A stretch of DNA of 64,000 bases, taken from the NCBI GenBank assembly GCA_004022145.1, contig RCNU01000012.1; one strand, written 5' to 3'. The stretch's first letter is position 1; each line of letters opens with the position of its first letter. The notes under the pieces were generated by a model. That model saw only the letters and a list, made by a program, of their open reading frames with translations, ran no database searches and had not been told where the DNA came from. The translations under genes were made by a program, and so were the position numbers. Shown one piece after another: positions 45,142 through 63,241 of the stretch. Source of the DNA: Paecilomyces variotii (taxonomy: Eukaryota).

Positions 45142-47331
45142 TCACCATGTCTCCTGCAGGGAAGTTAGTCATTGTAGCAAAATCTAATAAGACATAAAAA
45201 GGCAACTTACAGCAATGTACTGGCCAGCCTCCTTCTTCTGCTGCCAGAAGGAGTGCGCCTCCTCACGGTTGAGGTTACCCTTGGCCATGGCTACGTCGAC
45301 CAAAGCCTCCTCGACACCTTCTCCCATACCCTTGCTGCTGCCGCAGACGAAGATACGTCCATCAAGGGAGTTGATGACAAACCAGACCAGGTCTGCCTGG
45401 TGACGAACCTCTTCCTGGACATATCGACTCTCGCCGCGGCGGCTTTGAACCACCTTCTTCACTTTGTCTTCATGAACTCCCCATTCGCCACTGTACAGTT
45501 CATCCAGGAGAGAGTCACGAATACCCTGGAGCACCCAGACCTTGTTGGCGCAGTTGGCGGACTTCAGGCGTCTCTGGACGAAACCACGGAATGGAGCAAT
45601 GCCCACACCAGCACCGACCAACAGCATAGGACCGTCTGAAACGAACTCCCTGGCGAGCGGGTTGGCCATCAGGCCTCGGAACATAGGCACGTGAATATCA
45701 AGGGAGCGAGGGTCTTTACCCTCCCGTTCAGCAGCCATGACCTTTTGGGCAAGACGCTCCAGGAAACCGGATCCCACACCGGTCCTCTTTCCACCTCTCC
45801 AGTCGTCAGCCTCATGCACAGTAACGGCAATTTCAATTAGACGACGCGACTGCTCTCCCTTGACCGTCCGTGAGATTTGAGGGTCCTGAGAAAGAGAGTA
45901 GAATCGCGGCATAAGCTGGTTTAGGGCGGAGAGAAGGTAGTCGAGCGGCGGCTGGCTCGAGGGGAACGCGGTCAACAGCTGCGACAGCGTAATGTGGCAC
46001 CCGGTGCGGAGATCACAAAAAGCTCCCTGGCCCTGAGCTGAAGACAGATACATGAGAATCTTCTTCTCATTGGGCTCTGAAGCATATTCTGCAAATAGTC
46101 GGAAAAGAGGCTTGGTAGGCGGGTAACTGGTGATGTCCGAACACCAATTCAAGACCTCCCTTCGTGTAGTAACCAGGTCCCGCGGCTTGTCCTCGCCCCA
46201 AATCGTGGGCCAGCGACCCTTGGTGGTGTGCAGCGTGATCTTCTTGTCGCGGATAGCCTTAGGTATGCCGAGAAGGTCGAACACCATTTCCACTTCTTCC
46301 TCATTGTTCTTGGGGCACACCCCAATGGCTCCTCCAACGACAAAATCGACGTTTCCTCCTTCCTCGGGGTAGTCTGTCACGTCGATGTCGAAGTGGTAGG
46401 TGCGCTTCTCCGCACCCGGCCTGGTAAGCTCTCGCGCATGGTGAAGAGGCGCCCGGTAGACCTCATAGGGAGGATGGGGCTGGACGAATCTGGGAGGATG
46501 GTCCTCGGGAGTCGGTTTCATGTCAATGGCGCTGGCCGGAGCCGGAGAGATAGTGACTGTCTTCTCCGGCAGTGCGACAATGTTGGTCAACTCGCTGTCC
46601 AGACTCAAGTGGCCCAGCTTCAACCCCAAACTCTGGAAAGCTTTGTTCGTGGGCGGCACCACAGGATGGGCAGTAGAGCTAGAGCCATTATCCCTCAATG
46701 GCTGGCTCATGCAGCATCCGCCGCCGCAGCAAACTTTCTCGACCAACTGTGTACCTCCAGTGCCAACCTGTCCGAGGATTCTCTGCATGTCATCCGCATT
46801 CTGTGAGATGAGCACGGTCGACGCTCGTCGTCGACCAGGCTCCCTGGAGGGTTGCTTCTGTTCATCCCGTAGCTGCTCCAGGCCATCGTCTGACTGAGGC
46901 TCCGTCGCCGGGGTGGATGGAGCTTCCGAGTCACTCTCCGAAAGATTCACCGACTGCGACGACTGCGAGTCCGGAGAGGCGTCAAAGTTAGGGTCCGATA
47001 CTGTCAAATTGGGAATATCCCGCGGCTCTTCTGGAATCGGATTGTCTGGGTGCGAGGTCGAAGATTCTGGGACCGCAGAGCGATCATGCTGGCGGGTCAA
47101 CGTCGACGCCATCGCGGCCGACGACGGCGAGGGGGCTACCACTGCGTGCACTGCGTTCATTCCCAAGTCAGCAATGGCTCTTCCATGTCGCATTGAGTGT
47201 TCCTGAAGACTATCCCAGTTGTGATAGGGGTTCAATGCCCAGTGGTGCAGCGGTTCCATTGCTCCGGAACCTCACCAAGGGAACTGAAATTCTTGCCACC
47301 GCAGTATGGATAAAGAAAAAAACATACCCAT
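45142..47331 (-). CDS. FAD/NADPH-binding reductase of the CPR/methionine-synthase-reductase (FNR-like) type lacking the FMN/flavodoxin domain, about 651 aa
   Basis: RFYSLS, GVGSGFL, GAGVGIAPFRGF, YVQE, FVCGSSKGMG; last intron 45154-45210 gives the terminal ETW*. Proposed 4-nt first exon (ATGG, 47331-47328) and intron 47151-47327. N-terminus is low-complexity with a CCGGGCC motif. Confidence 0.88.
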
Positions 47332-53614: not shown

Positions 53615-55306
53615 TGCGCATGGAGGGGCCAGGGATACAACTCAGTCTGGGGTAATCTCCAGGCAACTCGTTGTATAAGGTACGGTAGACCAAAGAACCC
53701 TCCGCATCGCTGAGATGAGAGAACAGGGTCCAAAACAAAGGTCACAAATGCTTCTGCATTAAAGTCAGGAATACGGAGTTGAGGTCTGCTCTTGACGTCG
53801 AAGAAATCATCTACGTACTGGTTGCCCGGCTGTACCAGCACAGCCCCCACGGGACACTCTTCGGGCGCCCTGATCCCTAGTGTCACGTGATCTAGGCGAG
53901 CCTATGGTTCACCTAGCTCCTAGATCCAATCAAGCAAGCTTTCTCCCGCTTCCTTACTACCCTACATAAGTACGAGAAATCACGTGTTATAGGTCAGGAT
54001 ATCATAACTCCTGCTGAGCTTTTTACCACTTCCTTTAGGTCATGGTTTTTCAGCAGTCAAGGCTCAACTTATTCCCAATATATTCTAATCAGTCATCAAG
54101 TAACGGCATGTGGTTCTCGGGCTCCTTTCCATTTTCCTATTGTGAATGTACTATTTGCCCAAGCTCAATCCATAGGTAAGTAGTCTTCATTTCGAACGCA
54201 ACTGGCCAATATAATCGGCAGAGTTTCAGTGGTGAAGTTTTCAGTCTTTATCGATATCGATTATATCTTCGTCGAGCCTAGCGGACAGCATCTTGTTAAC
54301 CCGGATAGTTGAACAGAATTCTCTGATCCGGATTTATAACCCACTGAGACAGTTACTTTGGTCCACAGAGCACCGGTCACGGGCTTATAGCTCCACGTTT
54401 GTGCCAGCAAAATACCAGCTGCTTCCTCTGCCCCTGGACTACTGTTACCGGCATCTGCTGATCTGGCTTAAATCACGTGCTACGAATACACTGCTGTCTT
54501 TGTATTTTCCAGGTTCTGCTACCTTAGTTGCCTCGGACGATACGAGATCCCTTCTCGTTGTGCTGGATAAAGTAAGCTACTTTCATTCCGGCATAGATAA
54601 AGAGCTTTCTGCCGAGTTGACAGAAGCTGGGCACAACTCTCTTTGAAATTATTCTCCATGTTTTGACAACATCGTTGCTCTAGTTCTGCAAGTTGCGGTA
54701 AACAAGGCAGCCGCCAACCGGGATACTGCGAAAAACAGGCATCCTTGCTTGAGCAAATGACTCGCGGATATTTTCCCTTCTCTTAAGGTCTTTCTGACCT
54801 GGCGAGAGTACTGGCGGATGGCTTTTTGATGGGTGAGGTCCAAGACTGCGCAACATTTCTTCCAGGGGCTTTTGCTGACTGCCTTTGGGGGCTGACCCCG
54901 ACAATTTTAGACAGCAAATCCGGAGTGCATCTGTTAAGTGAGTGTGTATCATATGCCTGTCGGGAAAGATGAACAAGTTTTAGCTCTATCTCAAGGCCAC
55001 CAATATCTCGAATCCGAACGTGCTTAGGCCTTCGCTAGCCCACGAGATTCGGAGGCAGTGACCCAAGCACTTGAGACCAATAATGATAAGGACCAACATC
55101 TCAGCTCATGTTATGGATGGCCTGAAAAAGGGCAATAATGCTCACATGTTACATCGCCCCGAAATACTTCGGCACGTCCAGGGGGCGGGGGCGGGTTTAT
55201 TCTTACATATGATGCAATCTTCATAATCTGTTGCATCTCGGAAAAGAGGGCAATCGAGTCATATCGTGTATGTTTATATGCCTCTGTCAAGGTTAGGAGA
55301 AAAGGG

Positions 55307-55314
55307 TATAAATA
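55307..55314 (+). promoter_or_regulatory. TATA box of the secreted-protein gene
   Basis: TATAAATA about 120 bp upstream of ATG 55426. Confidence 0.5.
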
Positions 55315-55425
55315 GGCTTACCTCTCCGTTGTCAAAAGTCAAACTAAGGGGCAGAAACTGTACGCTTCTCCTCAGCTCTCTACTTATTTTGATATCTTTT
55401 TATCATCCGTGAGGATTTTCTCGCA

Positions 55426-56562
55426 ATGCCCAGATTTCAGACTTACTTCTTCTGCTTGTCTCTGACCGTTCTGGTCTTCTCCCCACTGGCAATAGCCGTA
55501 GTGGACAAATGGACTCCAGCCGGGTTCAACTGGTCCGCCGTCGACCCCGGTCCCAAGGAGAGCTGGAATGGTCTGTATCAGAATCTCAGCGACCCGTCTG
55601 TGGCTGTCAGTAAAGAAGTCATGGCCTTGGGGCATGTGCGCACGGCATCTGATGGCTCAACGGCGTTGGCTATTCCTTTCTTTCTCGGCCTCGCTTGGCA
55701 GGCGTTCAACCTTGTCCTCACCGGTGCTGGGCTGGCCGGGGCAATCGTATCCTGTCAACAGAGCGAAGGTTCACCTGAAAACATCTTTTTTTGTGTCACA
55801 GGCTTATTGAGCACGCTCGTTGGCATCGGCGGCGCGGCTTCAGCGGCCAAGACCTATGCCCAATCCCGCGGTTACTTGGGCGTCGCGGCGAATGCGTGGT
55901 CAAACTCGGGTCTCGAAAGCATTGCACTGGATGTTTTCAGCAAGCGCGATCTTCTCACTCCTGAATTGAAGATCGCGCAGCATGCCCATAACCATTTTGT
56001 CCATACCGCCATCCGTAGTCTGGCCGTGGATGGCAGCGTGGAATTTGTGGGATACGCCGAGGACACTCATCGGCTGGCGCGCCGTACGTCGAGCGAACAC
56101 CCGTTCGCCCCCATGTTTCGCTTCAATCACACCAAGCACGGTGCGATAGAGGTCACCTCGCGCGATCTGGGGGAGGCCAATGGGGGCATGCACTTCACTG
56201 TCTCCTATGCAGGTCATCCGGCGCATCATGCCGCTAGCACAAAGCGCGACGAGTATTTCCAGCACGAACGGCTCAACACCGATCTCTTCGAGGGACGCTT
56301 CGACTCTGGAGCATCTAACGCTGACCCAGCAACCATTTCCTTTGATGCAGCTGGTGCCTTCGACCAGATCGAGTCATCCGTGGAGTGCTACACGGACGGC
56401 AGTTGGCCGGATGGGAACGTATTGTCTGTGCAGATGTATGATCAGGCCAACCAAGCGACTTTTGGGTTTGCCTCAATTGGTATCTTCGCAGATAATAGCG
56501 TCGATTCCGGCCTTGAAGGATTTGAACCTTCAGGTATGCCGCTGGCTTCGCCGTCGTGTTAA
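55426..56562 (+). CDS. Secreted Kex2-processed protein with killer-preprotoxin-like organisation; function unassigned
   Basis: Intronless 378 aa; signal peptide (about 1-24); two hydrophobic segments around C110/C123; dibasic sites KR173-174, RR219-220, KR273-274; acidic C-terminal domain with C321 and terminal C378. The CDS is well supported; the toxin call is inference. Confidence 0.8.
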   Translation: MPRFQTYFFCLSLTVLVFSPLAIAVVDKWTPAGFNWSAVDPGPKESWNGLYQNLSDPSVAVSKEVMALGHVRTASDGSTALAIPFFLGLAWQAFNLVLTGAGLAGAIVSCQQSEGSPENIFFCVTGLLSTLVGIGGAASAAKTYAQSRGYLGVAANAWSNSGLESIALDVFSKRDLLTPELKIAQHAHNHFVHTAIRSLAVDGSVEFVGYAEDTHRLARRTSSEHPFAPMFRFNHTKHGAIEVTSRDLGEANGGMHFTVSYAGHPAHHAASTKRDEYFQHERLNTDLFEGRFDSGASNADPATISFDAAGAFDQIESSVECYTDGSWPDGNVLSVQMYDQANQATFGFASIGIFADNSVDSGLEGFEPSGMPLASPSC

Positions 56563-57228
56563 ACCTTTTCTCCACTTTCTGTTTGGCGATTGGTTCCACA
56601 TGGCCTGAGAAACGAAGGATAGGCGAGAAGGATTTTTGCTGTCGGTAGAAGAAGAGAGATGAGGGGAAAGAAGCTGAAAGAGGGGTTTGGCAAGGGTTAT
56701 AGTTGTGTTAAAGCCAAGTGGAATACGCACTTTTGAGAGAATCCGACGATCTTCACCTGGTCATTAACTGATCTACTGAATTAATGCCAGAAATGCTCGA
56801 GATGTAGTAAAGATAGGGTGCTAAAGGTAGTTTATGTAGTCTTCAACATATTGATGCAGAGTTCTATTGGCTTGTTAACGACTTGACTATAATCTGACTC
56901 ATAACATGGATCAACGCCAATGGGGGCCAGATGTGGGAATTACCCGAATCCGGGGCACAGTATAGAGTATGTCGGACGTACAAAGTAGACTTAGTGTTAT
57001 CCCCTAAATCATTATCATCAGAGTTCTTTGTCCTATTATCACAAGGCAGTTGTATTCAGCTCGCACATCATACATAAGTTAGGTCATGAGGTGCACTCAG
57101 CCTCACCAGCTTCCAACTGTCTTCTGCAACTTATACTTATTCTATCTAATTCACCTTCTTCTTCAGGCTCAGCCGCACTTGATGAATGGCCAAACTAGCA
57201 AATTCTACTATTATACTCCCAAATCACC

Positions 57229-58920: not shown

Positions 58921-61055
58921 TTAAGCGCTGGGCGATGGGCGCTTGAACGGGTGCGCTTCCGTATTACTATTTAGGAAAAATTGAACGGTTAGTCTAAGAT
59001 CTGTCTCCGTACCTGGTGGCATCGTTGTTGTTGGGTGGGGGATCCATAGGCCGCGCGGAAGCCTACGCGTCTTCGGGGCCAAGGACTATATAATAGTAAG
59101 ACCACGAGTCGGGAGATCAACTTACAGGACATATTCGTCCAAACTGACAACGTCTGGCTCGGAGAAAACGAGGTAGAAATACTTCAGCGTCTCTGCAAGC
59201 CAGAAGCTCTCCATCTTATCCGACTTCCCGGTCTGGCGGGAACGGACATCAGTGATGCCAGCATTCGCGATGTCCGTCTTGGAGAGGTTGTCGATGCTCT
59301 GGAACATCCGCCATGCAGCGTCTTGATATTTCTTGTCGCCAGTGATCCGGTACATAATGAAGACAGACTCGATTGCCTCCGGCCTACGTCACTTTATTAG
59401 CTTGTGGACTCCAAGGGGAAAAGAGCCTCCCATGGGTGTTCTGACGGGGGCCTGCACAGCTACATGAGACTTACCTCAAGATGTATCGACTATCTTTGAC
59501 TTCCGTGATTCCAGGCTGGAGGCCGTGTTCCTCAATCAGCTTCTTGGCTTCCACTGCAGCTTCCTCGTCCGACTCGGTGCCGCCGAAACTGAAGTGCCGG
59601 CGGATGTCATGGTACCATTTCATTTCGTCCCAATCGCAATCCTCCTTGTGACTGCAGACGGAGGTATAGAAAATTTCAGGCATCACGCCCGTAGGCATCG
59701 AATCATAGGCCCAGATACACCCATCTGTCAATTTCCGTGCCGTGGCAAGCTCCTCAGGGCGATCGAAGATTCGCGCTCCGATACCGACCATGCCACCAAT
59801 GAAGCAAGTGAGATGTTGAGCTTGAGGCTCCAGCCCGATTCTGGTCGAAACGCTAACTTGTGTATTTCCAGCTATGAGAACGTCTTCGCCGTTCTTCGTC
59901 ATGGGACGGTAGAGCAACTTGTTGTTGATCTGGTCCATGGCGGCTTGGTACATATTTTTGTACTGCTGCAAACGGCCTCCTAGGAGTAAATATTCCTTAG
60001 GGAGATATTCATACGTGGAATCAGCCATTCCACCCATGGTGAAGCGGCGATCGGAGAAGTCGAGATGTTGCGCATCTACCATGACAGGCCACAGGCCGGG
60101 AATTCGGGTCGTTTTCTGGTGGTCTTCTAGGACATTCGTGACTCTCTGGACGGCATCAAAGAACTTCGGATCACCGGTGAGTTGCGTAAGACGTGTGAAC
60201 TCCATGCTCAGCGAGCCCAACTCTGCAAGCAACGTGTTGCGGCTAGGCCTGATATCCAAACCTACTGCGGACCTAGAGATTGGTCAACATTATGTCGTCT
60301 CACTTTGCGCGAAGCTTCGCCGTCTCCTCGCCAACTGTGTGCAGTTCTCACCTCATCCAGTCCCAGCGACTCTGCGGCATTCTATTCGGGGTATCGAAGG
60401 CCTTGTACAGCATTTCACCCAGCTGCTGGGCCTTCTGCAATAAGATCGGGTGCTTCCCTCCACTGAGATCGTATGCGCCGAGGAATCCTCCTACATAGCG
60501 AATGGTGGTTTCGAAGACGTTGAGCTGGGTGTCGTGCGTGGTCGTGAAATCGATCTTATCGAGCGCTGCCAGAGCCTGCTCGAAATCGTCGTCCAAACCC
60601 ATAATGATCAGCGAGTCAAGCGTGTCGACTAGCGTCGCCGCCCATCCACTGAAGGTGTTCCTCCAGAGACCTGTTATGGGAACCAGCTCGTCCTTCAACC
60701 AGGCATGCTCCTTGTATCCATTCCAGGCGTGTTGGAACGCCTTCTTTACGGCGGCCTGTCTGTGCTCCCGCTCCTTGCGGTCAGCTGCACTTTCGCGAGG
60801 AAAGTCGTACTGGATCTTGGGGATCGCAGGCGCATTTCCAGTCGGGAGAGGGATGTAGGAGGAGACGGGGTAATTATCCGGGTGGTGTTTCCAGTGGACG
60901 GTCTCCTCTACGACAGGATCGGTTTTGGTGGATTGTGCCTCGACTTTTTCCGTATTGGAAACGTCCGCACCAGGCGGTAGACGATGGAAGAGGATGTAAA
61001 CAAGGAATATCAACACGAATGTGGCTATAACCACATTCTTGCGAACGAACAACAT
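58921..61055 (-). CDS. Class I alpha-1,2-mannosidase, GH47
   Basis: Type II anchor; HAWNGYKEHAW, ATLVDTLDSL, FETTIRYVGG, ADSTYEYL, HLTCFIGG, LRPE, MESFWLAETLKY, NTEAHP; introns 60273-60351, 59384-59474, 58967-59125. Confidence 0.95.
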
Positions 61056-62129
61056 GGCTCAGTGGTACTGCCCTGAAAGAATATATTCTATAAATTCAAT
61101 TCACGAGTAACTGTTTTGAAGTGAGTGAAAGGCTCCAAGAGCATATGGATAAAAGAGTGTATGTGTGAGATTCAATGCAGAATGCCTGGAATACACATCC
61201 GACAGACAAAAAAAAACGCGACGATGGTGGCTGTCTACAGACAGACATGCCACTTTTCAAGAAGACAAAACACAAATAGGGGGGAAATGACAATGATAGT
61301 AGAAGCCAGAATGATAAGCAAAACAGGACGCAATGTCCATTTCTCCAAGCCACCACAGTATTATTCCCCATGGGAGCTGTTGGTGGGAGGAGCGTTGTCT
61401 CAGTATCCCGCGATCAGCGCCCAGACTCTCCACTGTTTGCGCGTGTCACGGCCTGTTCTGGACAGATTCTCCCGTTTCTTGCCTCGCCCGGAGTCCACTC
61501 GCGGCTTGGCGCTGAGGCGGCCAACTCTACGATCGTCTTTTGTTCCGACTCTGGGGAGACGGCAAAACACGAGCACTGGGCAACGCTGGAGATATCGAGG
61601 GTCAATGCGACTGATAGACGGATCTATCTATAAGTAGAGATTGAAGGCATCGACTCACCGCGCAAAGTGGTGTGTTGCTGTTGCTCAACATTCACTCTTG
61701 ACTATATACGTTTCATGATTGCCAGGATTTCAAGCGACCATATCTACACATCTGCTTGATTCGAAGATATACTGTTGCTTGTCTCTATATATATCTGCGG
61801 TTCTATAACTGTTGCCTGGAATATCTGTCATCTTTGGCCAAAGCAGAACGCTATATTGTCACTGTGCCGTGGTTCACTATACCTCTCTACTATTCCCAGT
61901 TGATATGTCATACTTGTCTGCCTACTGTCATACTGCCTAGAGTCATACTTCCTCGTCTTGTCTTTATACCAATTGTTTGAACTCTCTATTGTACATTGAT
62001 CTGAGTTGGTTACGTGCCTTTTCTTTCTGTCAGCGGCCTTTGCTTCCAGGGCCCCTTTGGAACGGTTATACGTCTTATCTTGGCCTTATACTAGAATCAA
62101 CCCCTTAGCTGGGTTAACCCAATATCAAA

Positions 62130-63241
62130 ATGACCATCACAGGGTATGGCTCCTTCCCTGCGTCCATCTTCATACTACGATCATGTTTCTGAGCAATTCA
62201 ACTAACCATCGCTACAGGGTTTTCTTTATCCCCTCAAACCCCAATGCTCCCAGCGCTCTTCCAATACTGACGGAGCGTCTGCGCTCCGTCTTCGCGGAGG
62301 AGCCTATCCCTATAGGCCGCTGGGCCCTGGAACACAAACTGATGCGTGACACGCCTTCCTGTCTACCAGCTTCAGCCCACGCTCCAAACCCCGTTCCGAA
62401 ACCGAAATATATGCAATTTCTCTCCCTCACCCACTACCCGAATCACGGATTCATATATGCTTCCGAAGCAACGGACCTACCTCAGGCATCTGTGGCAGCA
62501 GGCGGAAGTCACAGACAGACTCCTTTGCTGGGGACGATATCTGCTGCAGCTGGGCCGCCACAAGCGCAAGCGCAATCACCGACAGCCGCAGCAGGAGGCG
62601 CTGCGCCGTCGTCCAACGCATCCCAGTCCGGCATGATAATGCGTACTGTCCCTCTCTCTTCCTATGGTCCGCTCTTCCAGCATTTCATGCGCGCCTGCGA
62701 ACCTTTCTGGAACCATCGACACACCGTCACCGTCCCAGCTGGGGTCGTCTACGACATCGGTGATTTTCGCCTCCGCATAGGTGATGTACGGCAGACATTT
62801 CCCCAAGCACGAGCACGGGGCACAGTCGTGGAGGTGGAATGGAAAGGTCCATCACCATTAACCTCCTCCTCCTCCTCATCCCCTGCCAACTTCAACGAAG
62901 ACGGCTCATCCGATTCCGGCATCGACGTCACGACAGAACCGCTCGACGACTCCGAAATCGACGCCGAATATGCTCTTGTCGCGCAGCTCATCCGAGATTT
63001 CTGGTCCCAGCTAGGCATCGAAGGGGCCAGAGAAGCCATTCTCGTTCCTGACGTGGGCAAGGAGATTAAAGAACAGCACCGCAGGCGCAGAGCTGGTGAG
63101 AACTTGAAAAGAAAGAAACCCCGCACCCACGACGACGACGAAGAAGGATGGGGATGGTGGGATATAGAAGAGGATAAGAACCCGGATGCAGGTGTCGATC
63201 TGGCGAGGCAGTATATGGAGATATACAGGTTCAATCGATGA
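62130..63241 (+). CDS. med20: Mediator of RNA polymerase II transcription subunit 20 (Med20/Srb2)
   Basis: Exon MTITG (62130-62143), intron 62144-62217, then VFFIP..GRWALEHKLMRDTPSCLP..MQFLSLTHYP..YDIGDFRLRIGDVRQ..RGTVVEVEW..DLARQYMEIYRFNR, matching Pezizomycotina Med20 as recognised by eye. Confidence 0.8.

Follow-up and report, generated by a model that had tools for sequence, protein, structure and literature searches.

The 64,000-nucleotide (nt) stretch of Paecilomyces variotii DNA analysed here (hereafter the window; contig RCNU01000012.1) carries on its + strand, at 55426..56562, an open reading frame (ORF) whose product is best explained, at a probability of roughly 0.55, as a chromosomally encoded killer toxin of the K45 family in the K1 superfamily, with its toxicity, secretion and cutting by Kex2 predicted from sequence and from structural models. 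The encoded protein matches K45 at the level of the fold and has features that are conserved in its relatives, and its ORF is transcribed without splicing. K45 is the killer preprotoxin of the M45 double-stranded RNA (dsRNA) satellite of Saccharomyces paradoxus (A0A2D1CM61, ATN38271.1); like K1, K1L and K2 it is counted among the ionophoric killer toxins, and its family, for which the name KTF is proposed, is included in the 'K1 superfamily' (PMC13211469). Transfer of M45 by cytoduction yields K45 killer strains (PMC5666360). The first-pass annotation of this DNA had guessed a killer-preprotoxin layout from the architecture of the protein, without homology, and the guess is now supported by a Foldseek search in which K45 is the sole significant match in BFVD.

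The ORF runs from ATG to TAA through 378 codons plus the stop and gives a protein of 378 amino acids (aa). A script run on the translation recovered every sequence feature that had been noticed at first sight, i.e. the signal peptide, the N-glycosylation sequons N35 (NWS), N53 (NLS) and N234 (NHT), the cysteines (positions 10, 110, 123, 321 and 378), the 12 histidines within residues 175–274, and the dibasic pairs, of which there are exactly three (KR173-174, RR219-220 and KR273-274). Hydropathy, taken in a 19-residue Kyte-Doolittle window at values of at least 1.4, peaks at centres 13–20 (the signal), 88–102 and 128–132, the latter two coinciding with the Gly/Ala-rich hydrophobic segments described around C110 and C123. 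The C-terminal domain of 104 aa (residues 275–378), with C321 and the terminal C378, is indeed acidic and devoid of Lys, with 18 Asp+Glu, 2 Arg and a net charge of -16. By the -3/-1 rule, rather than by a predictor, the signal peptide would be cut after AIA24, ahead of a conserved VVDKWTP, and the junction A-(V/I)-(V/I)-DKWTP is conserved across relatives in an alignment of 27 sequences. A candidate for the claimed TATA box is present upstream of the start codon as TATAAATA. The limits of all features are collected in Table 1, where the parts of the precursor are named after the delta-alpha-gamma-beta layout of killer preprotoxins.

Comparison of an AlphaFold model by Foldseek, a check that the first-pass annotation had itself proposed, returned a killer preprotoxin as the significant match in the viral library. 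In a search with the model built from 59 sequences (mean predicted local distance difference test score (pLDDT) 70.6, predicted template-modelling score (pTM) 0.64), K45 (A0A2D1CM61) ranks first in BFVD with an expectation value (E) of 1.6e-6 and a probability of 1.00, in an alignment that extends over the whole length (401 columns, target of 370 aa) at 16% identity and template-modelling (TM) scores of 0.42/0.43. No other row of the at least 500 BFVD matches counted reaches E ≤ 0.001, the next one being at E 0.079; K1L stands seventh (E 0.16, probability 0.23), and no K2-family protein occurs in the best 50 rows. Against the PDB, the same model gave a best E of 0.17, with the SMK toxin not among the matches listed, and the ESM Atlas returned only unnamed Ascomycota clusters of the family itself, other structural rows having TM ≤ 0.31. 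An earlier model from 27 sequences (pLDDT 52.4; best PDB E 0.07 by Foldseek) was too poor for use and was set aside.

The model presents, in order, short strands within 50–82, a hydrophobic strand at 85–93 and a long helix at 118–147 around C123, followed in gamma by a helix (179–197) and four strands between 200 and 261, which at a pLDDT of 81–90 are the most confident part, and in beta by a strand (288–292), a helix (308–323) and strands within 331–353. Values of pLDDT below 50 occur at 95–120, 165–173 and 270–285, the latter two being the loops of KR174 and KR274. RR220 falls within a short helix that is modelled with confidence and, on this model, may be structural; likewise the N-terminal segment 25–72 may stay part of the fold. 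A predicted complex of alpha (73–174) and beta (275–378), computed without alignments and with the fold of the partner uncertain, had a score of 0.00, a value that speaks neither for binding nor against it. The His/Arg-rich gamma was also considered as an enzyme, and this reading was rejected, as there was no supporting family or fold match.

The features printed for K45 provide a comparison that is independent of the Foldseek score, and this comparison supports a fit of cysteine pattern, domain lengths and Kex positions that is almost residue for residue (K45 values here and below are from sections 2.1 and 2.7 and supplementary Tables S1–S8 of PMC13211469). K45 has 370 aa and the P. variotii protein 378; the K45 signal extends to residue ∼27 (1–24 here), and K45's delta, alpha, gamma and beta pieces at 28–56, 57–179, 180–267 and 268–370 compare with 25–72, 73–174, 175–274 and 275–378, respectively (PMC13211469). 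At the alpha/gamma boundary the Kex site GFKKR179 of K45 is paralleled by VFSKR174 with similar P4–P1 residues, and at the gamma/beta boundary RAKR267 is paralleled by STKR274, whereas IHRR56 at the delta/alpha boundary is replaced by a single R72; the extra dibasic site also differs, being FAKR97 in K45, with no counterpart here, and the mid-gamma RR219-220 in the P. variotii protein (PMC13211469). Of the five cysteines that each protein contains, one lies in the signal region (C27 in K45, C10 here). The modelled K45 disulfides C123-C137 in alpha (spacing 14) and C311-C367 in beta (spacing 56) are matched by putative pairs C110/C123 (spacing 13) and C321/C378 (spacing 57), respectively, with C378 being the last residue here and C367 lying within the 370 residues of K45 (PMC13211469). 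No interchain disulfide is predicted for K45, and the spacing-matched pairs proposed here are likewise intradomain (PMC13211469). The K45 model is described as a central helix surrounded by strands that number one in alpha, four in gamma and three in beta, and the order of elements in the present model reproduces this description (PMC13211469). The central helix reads DCVVGAVDTGVTLG in K45 (Table S6, PMC13211469) and FCVTGLLSTLVGIG here, the two being identical at 6 of 14 positions, and the identities include C123, G126, T130 and G135, which are nearly invariant in the present family. The two systems differ in location, K45 being encoded on a yeast dsRNA satellite and the present protein by a chromosomal gene of a filamentous Eurotiomycete. 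They differ also in that killer activity is shown for K45 strains (PMC5666360), whereas the present protein is, from its sequence, a candidate.

Relatives detectable by sequence define the family within which these features can be followed. A word-seeded search found a hypothetical P. variotii protein (P0002) with 100% identity and returned 33 relatives of similar length, the named ones being all Pezizomycotina (Aspergillus species, Thozetella, Pseudomassariella, Gnomoniopsis, Hypoxylon and Tricladium). When 1.84 billion representatives were searched exhaustively with phmmer, 68 proteins, a good many of which are fragments, reached E ≤ 0.001. Further members, from Penicillium, Aspergillus wentii, A. 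sclerotialis and two Mycena species (Agaricomycetes), came from a profile search. Relatives in many fungi are 36–69% identical. Pfam gave noise only for the single protein (ThrE and Acanthaporin, E 0.35 and 0.68), and for 59 relatives at E ≤ 10 it matched 24 families, none of them common to more than two members; a sequence search of the PDB gave noise for the single protein (E > 1) and no match at E ≤ 10 for the 59-sequence profile. By sequence, this is an unnamed small fungal family that has neither a Pfam domain nor a relative of solved structure. K45 was not returned by the word-seeded search, by phmmer or by two profile sequence searches, and a degenerate DNA pattern made from the helix motif as printed for K45 matched 0 stretches in viral_contigs. 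In a 2026 survey, PSI-BLAST gave 490 K45 homologues, including 96 from Eurotiomycetes and 90 from Sordariomycetes (PMC13211469, Table S2); the name Paecilomyces and four other genus names have no occurrence in those parts of the supplement of that study that are drawn on here, and these contain no list of the K45 homologues. Several short predicted proteins (P0109–P0114, 169–202 aa) match the N-terminal and alpha part only, the sequence past a common 'DGTVDLV' being unrelated; rather than alpha-only toxins, they probably represent gene models of the A. wentii-like subfamily that are cut at an unrecognised intron.

Since they are conserved in relatives, the sequence features lie beyond chance. 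Over 35 near-full-length relatives, the non-signal cysteines are kept in 34 (C110), 33 (C123), 34 (C321) and 34 (C378) cases, and the losses all fall in three gene models that are shortened. At the alpha/gamma boundary, 26 of the 35 have a dibasic pair; 30 have one in mid-gamma, and 34 retain one between gamma and beta, where the surrounding linker varies freely in length and sequence. A conserved pair within a variable linker is, judged from the alignment, what a processing site would be expected to show. R72 is conserved in the closer subfamily only. In the 27-sequence alignment, from which invariant columns were taken separately, C110, C123, G126, T130 and G135 are nearly invariant and R220 is invariant. 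Residues 175–274, which had been called a spacer, turned out to contain 10 of the 13 invariant columns as well as the best-modelled part of the protein, and the conserved gamma residues include Q185, R220, H225, R232 and R246.

Transcription of the gene is evident from public RNA libraries. The stretch is present in 18 of 24 listed runs, with nine on record as RNA, from six studies, and the ORF is covered by RNA contigs of three metatranscriptome studies and one culture study; the gene is transcribed in food-fermentation communities, among others. Four runs were examined at the contig level (X2, X3, X7 and X13). A 2064-nt contig of X2, a metatranscriptome, skips 54832–54909 (GT..AG) and is then colinear with the genome over 54910–56870, through the ORF: the splice establishes that the contig is RNA-derived, and its colinearity across the ORF that the ORF has no intron, as had been claimed from the letters. 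X13 and X7 show this splice as well. In X7, which is labelled with P. variotii itself, the ORF is covered in five pieces at depths of 3.5–9. A 23-kb contig shows that the X3 library contains DNA too. One X13 contig leaves the genome sequence at 56763 and runs on into 12 A's without a genomic template, which suggests, from this one contig of one run, a poly(A) site ∼200 nt past the stop on the + strand. The differences within the ORF in the examined runs are all synonymous (3/3).

Among other killer-toxin systems, the likeness to K1 and K1L lies in the delta-alpha-gamma-beta precursor logic, the hydrophobic alpha and the Kex2 boundaries, with no sequence similarity to K1/K1L detected. The mid-gamma dibasic site YVKR188 of K1 parallels RR220 (PMC13211469), and mid-gamma sites are listed for K1, K2, K28 and KTS1 (Table S4, PMC13211469). 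K1 has an alpha-beta interchain disulfide, C92-C239 (PMC13211469), whereas one Cys pair lies within each part here, and from its sequence the present pattern would agree more readily with two intradomain pairs than with a link between chains. K2, K21(K66) and KHS1 share a similar precursor length, a hydrophobic alpha and a C-terminal Cys pinning the tail; in the K2 family a non-covalent alpha/beta pair is predicted (PMC13211469), as is proposed here, and KHS1 is also chromosomal. The K2 family differs by DUF5341, the K2/KHS1 domain, which lies in beta there and is not among the 24 Pfam families that the 59 members matched at E ≤ 10. K1 and K2, whose layout had served as the model at first sight, give way to K45 as the relative, with K1L at E 0.16 and the K2-type domain in 0 of 59 members. 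The SMK toxin (SMKT, PDB 1KVE) shows alpha-gamma-beta processing, as in the layout here, and SMKT and KP4 (1KPT), both alpha/beta-sandwich toxins, are proposed to belong to one structural superfamily with K2, K1 and K45 (PMC13211469); there is no significant match to a solved structure here, the nearest toxin row being Zt-KP4 (8acx) at E 1.5.

The relatives are distributed unevenly over the fungi. A maximum-likelihood tree of 35 rows, with fragments under ∼290 aa and the identical P0002 left out, resolves several deep subfamilies, and distinct subfamilies are present within Aspergillus, with A. wentii and one Penicillium protein in a distant one. The two P. variotii alleles stand with weak support (80/50) beside a Sordariomycete clade and apart from the main Aspergillus clade. 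From its sequence relationships, the patchy distribution of the family fits an accessory gene gained and lost. The Mycena proteins (P0100 from M. vitilis and P0101 from M. polygramma) are Basidiomycete homologues with 40–41% identity, nested in a clade with Tricladium and Hypoxylon proteins (98/95 support); this placement may reflect gene transfer between phyla or contamination. Within the species, a second P. variotii strain has a shorter allele (P0003), 89% identical, that is without residues 101–126 (26 residues, C110 and C123 included) and has C321Y plus 14 other substitutions. If the gene model is right, P0003 is apparently a disabled allele and a natural control.

A mechanism that accommodates these data may be proposed by analogy with the K1 superfamily. 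The signal peptide would carry the precursor into the endoplasmic reticulum, where it would be cut after A24 and N-glycosylated. The precursor would fold with the long hydrophobic helix from C123 buried under an antiparallel sheet of one alpha, four gamma and three beta strands, and two putative intradomain disulfides would pin the start of the helix (C110-C123) and the C-terminal tail (C321-C378). In the late Golgi, a Kex2-type protease would cut the exposed, poorly ordered loops after KR174 and KR274 and release gamma, and alpha and beta would be secreted as a non-covalent pair. The freed hydrophobic alpha may then insert in the plasma membrane of a competing fungus and render it leaky. The conservation of gamma would reflect its wrapping of the helix in the precursor, perhaps protecting the producer.

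Several observations weigh against this explanation. K45 is itself characterized by killer phenotype alone, its processing and pore formation being predictions (PMC13211469), and homology to it consists of one Foldseek match between two predicted models together with the printed motifs. The model used is moderate only (pLDDT 70.6), with alpha residues 95–120 below 50. No dibasic pair precedes residue 173, hence there is none ahead of alpha, where R72 stands by itself, as the first-pass annotation had correctly cautioned; K1 and K2, however, use single-Arg sites at their delta/alpha boundary (Table S4, PMC13211469), so that processing is still compatible with the missing dibasic site. The alpha/gamma pair is a single Arg ('ARD') in eight members of the Aspergillus clade, and one Penicillium protein reads HRHPPR. 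The concentration of invariant columns in gamma is unexpected for a discarded piece, and an identity of 66–69% between the P. variotii protein and the named Sordariomycete proteins is high for fast evolution driven by conflict.

Gamma conservation fits equally well a protein with a non-killing role in which gamma is retained, and it is possible, if not probable, that the protein shares the K45/K1 fold without being a weapon and that moulds have domesticated it in the secretory pathway, cell wall or membrane for a housekeeping or developmental function. Such a role is in keeping with the several His, Arg and Gln among the invariant columns of gamma and with its confident modelling, with the high identity across fungal classes, with the position of the gene amid ordinary genes (P450, GH47 mannosidase, Med20) at ordinary guanine-cytosine content (GC) and GC at third codon positions (GC3), and with an expression in pure culture that appears low but present; many K2-related proteins, moreover, are annotated merely as cell-wall proteins (PMC13211469). 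A housekeeping role is, however, at odds with the patchiness of the family, which counts 68 representatives in 1.84 billion and several subfamilies within Aspergillus, and the retention of the gamma/beta dibasic pair in 34 of 35 relatives within a variable linker argues for cutting. The second P. variotii strain's allele, without 26 residues and three conserved cysteines, indicates in addition that loss of the gene is possible.

It is improbable that the protein has no relation to killer toxins and is integral to the membrane, with 80–109 and 119–141 forming a transmembrane hairpin that retains it in the producer and the K45 match arising by coincidence between two predicted models whose hydrophobic helices are alike. 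The hydrophobic peaks of 1.76 and 1.93 are in the usual Kyte-Doolittle range for membrane helices, both hydrophobic segments were helical in the shallower first model, the weak Pfam noise (E 0.35–0.68) was to membrane families, and there is no relative of solved structure. The K45 alignment, however, spans the whole length, beyond the helices, and surpasses the next row by over four orders of magnitude; independently of the fold search, there is agreement with K45 in the spacing of the cysteines, the lengths of the domains and the motifs at their boundaries, and with the deeper alignment the first hydrophobic segment becomes a sheet strand, as in the K45 description. That the ORF is non-functional, a chance frame or, as the damaged look of one other strain's allele might suggest, a decaying relic, is highly improbable in view of a 378-codon open frame, relatives at 36–69% identity, a transcript in several RNA libraries and exclusively synonymous differences. 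Membership in the K45 family remains the preferred explanation.

Table 1. Positions of the K45-family preprotoxin-like gene and its parts in the 64,000-nt window.
Feature	Position	Strand	Evidence or remark
K45-family preprotoxin-like precursor (candidate), intron-free ORF	55426..56562	+	100% identical to P. variotii hypothetical protein; colinear RNA contig
Upstream box TATAAATA (∼110 nt before ATG)	55307..55314	+	Letters read directly; RNA contigs reach further upstream
Predicted signal peptide, residues 1–24, contains C10	55426..55497	+	Hydropathy peak 13–20; predicted cut after AIA24
N-terminal delta-like segment, residues 25–72, sequons N35 and N53, end at single R72	55498..55641	+	Short strands, pLDDT 73–86
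Alpha-like part, residues 73–174: strand 85–93, C110, C123, helix 118–147; end VFSKR174	55642..55947	+	Model and hydropathy
KR173-174, candidate Kex2 site, alpha/gamma boundary	55942..55947	+	Dibasic pair in 26/35 relatives; loop 165–173 pLDDT <50
Gamma-like part, residues 175–274: helix and four strands, 12 His, RR219-220, sequon N234	55948..56247	+	
KR273-274, candidate Kex2 site, gamma/beta boundary	56242..56247	+	Pair in 34/35 relatives; variable-length linker; 270–285 pLDDT <50
Beta-like part, residues 275–378: strand, helix, two strands; acidic, Lys-free; C321, terminal C378	56248..56559	+	Model, composition script
3′ untranslated region to likely poly(A) site	56563..56763	+	One RNA contig (run X13), hint only

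The genes around the ORF are ordinary ones, i.e. a FAD/NAD reductase-like ORF (FAD_binding_1 and NAD_binding_1; 45184–47271, - strand), a P450 (52241–53641, - strand), a GH47 mannosidase (exons within 59471–61058, - strand) and Med20 (62000–63241, + strand). Upstream of the toxin-like gene, the reductase-like ORF and the P450 share a strand, are separated by a few kb, and may form a redox pair. A mobile accessory region, or one affected by repeat-induced point mutation (RIP), was considered and rejected, GC being flat at 0.43–0.54 over the window and GC3 amounting to 0.62 in the ORF and 0.46–0.64 in its neighbours. Between P450 and ORF, the stretch 53650–55420 has a longest stop-to-stop frame of 136 aa and no obvious gene, and the 78-nt GT..AG intron at 54832–54909 (+ strand), seen in X2, X13 and X7, lies within it ∼500 nt upstream of the ORF. 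The stretch could represent a spliced transcript that lacks annotation, a gene of small size, or an extended 5′ leader belonging to the toxin-like gene.

The presence of the K45 family in filamentous fungi is already in print (PMC13211469). Literature searches found no tested K45-type toxin of a filamentous fungus and no killer toxin of P. variotii. To our knowledge, K1-type killer toxins as working weapons are known almost only from yeasts. On its modelled fold and conserved sites, the present gene may reasonably be regarded as a candidate antifungal weapon in a filamentous fungus. It offers a clean test case, being intact, free of introns and transcribed, with the conserved cysteines and boundary sites present and, in a second strain, an apparently disabled allele as a potential control. 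That P. variotii, Aspergillus niger and even Mycena make working K45-type, membrane-attacking toxins from ordinary chromosomal genes is a wider and still doubtful proposition; if true, it would imply that gene transfer carries the family across fungal classes and phyla, that the yeast dsRNA satellite M45 acquired its toxin from this chromosomal pool, and that gamma is a sequence-specific guard, be it an intramolecular chaperone or a self-immunity factor, that masks the pore-forming helix in the producer. Should the protein prove inactive, it would reveal another role of the K45 fold; should it prove active, moulds would share the membrane-attacking toxin design of yeasts, a virus-borne toxin would have a chromosomal source, and a candidate antifungal protein would be at hand.

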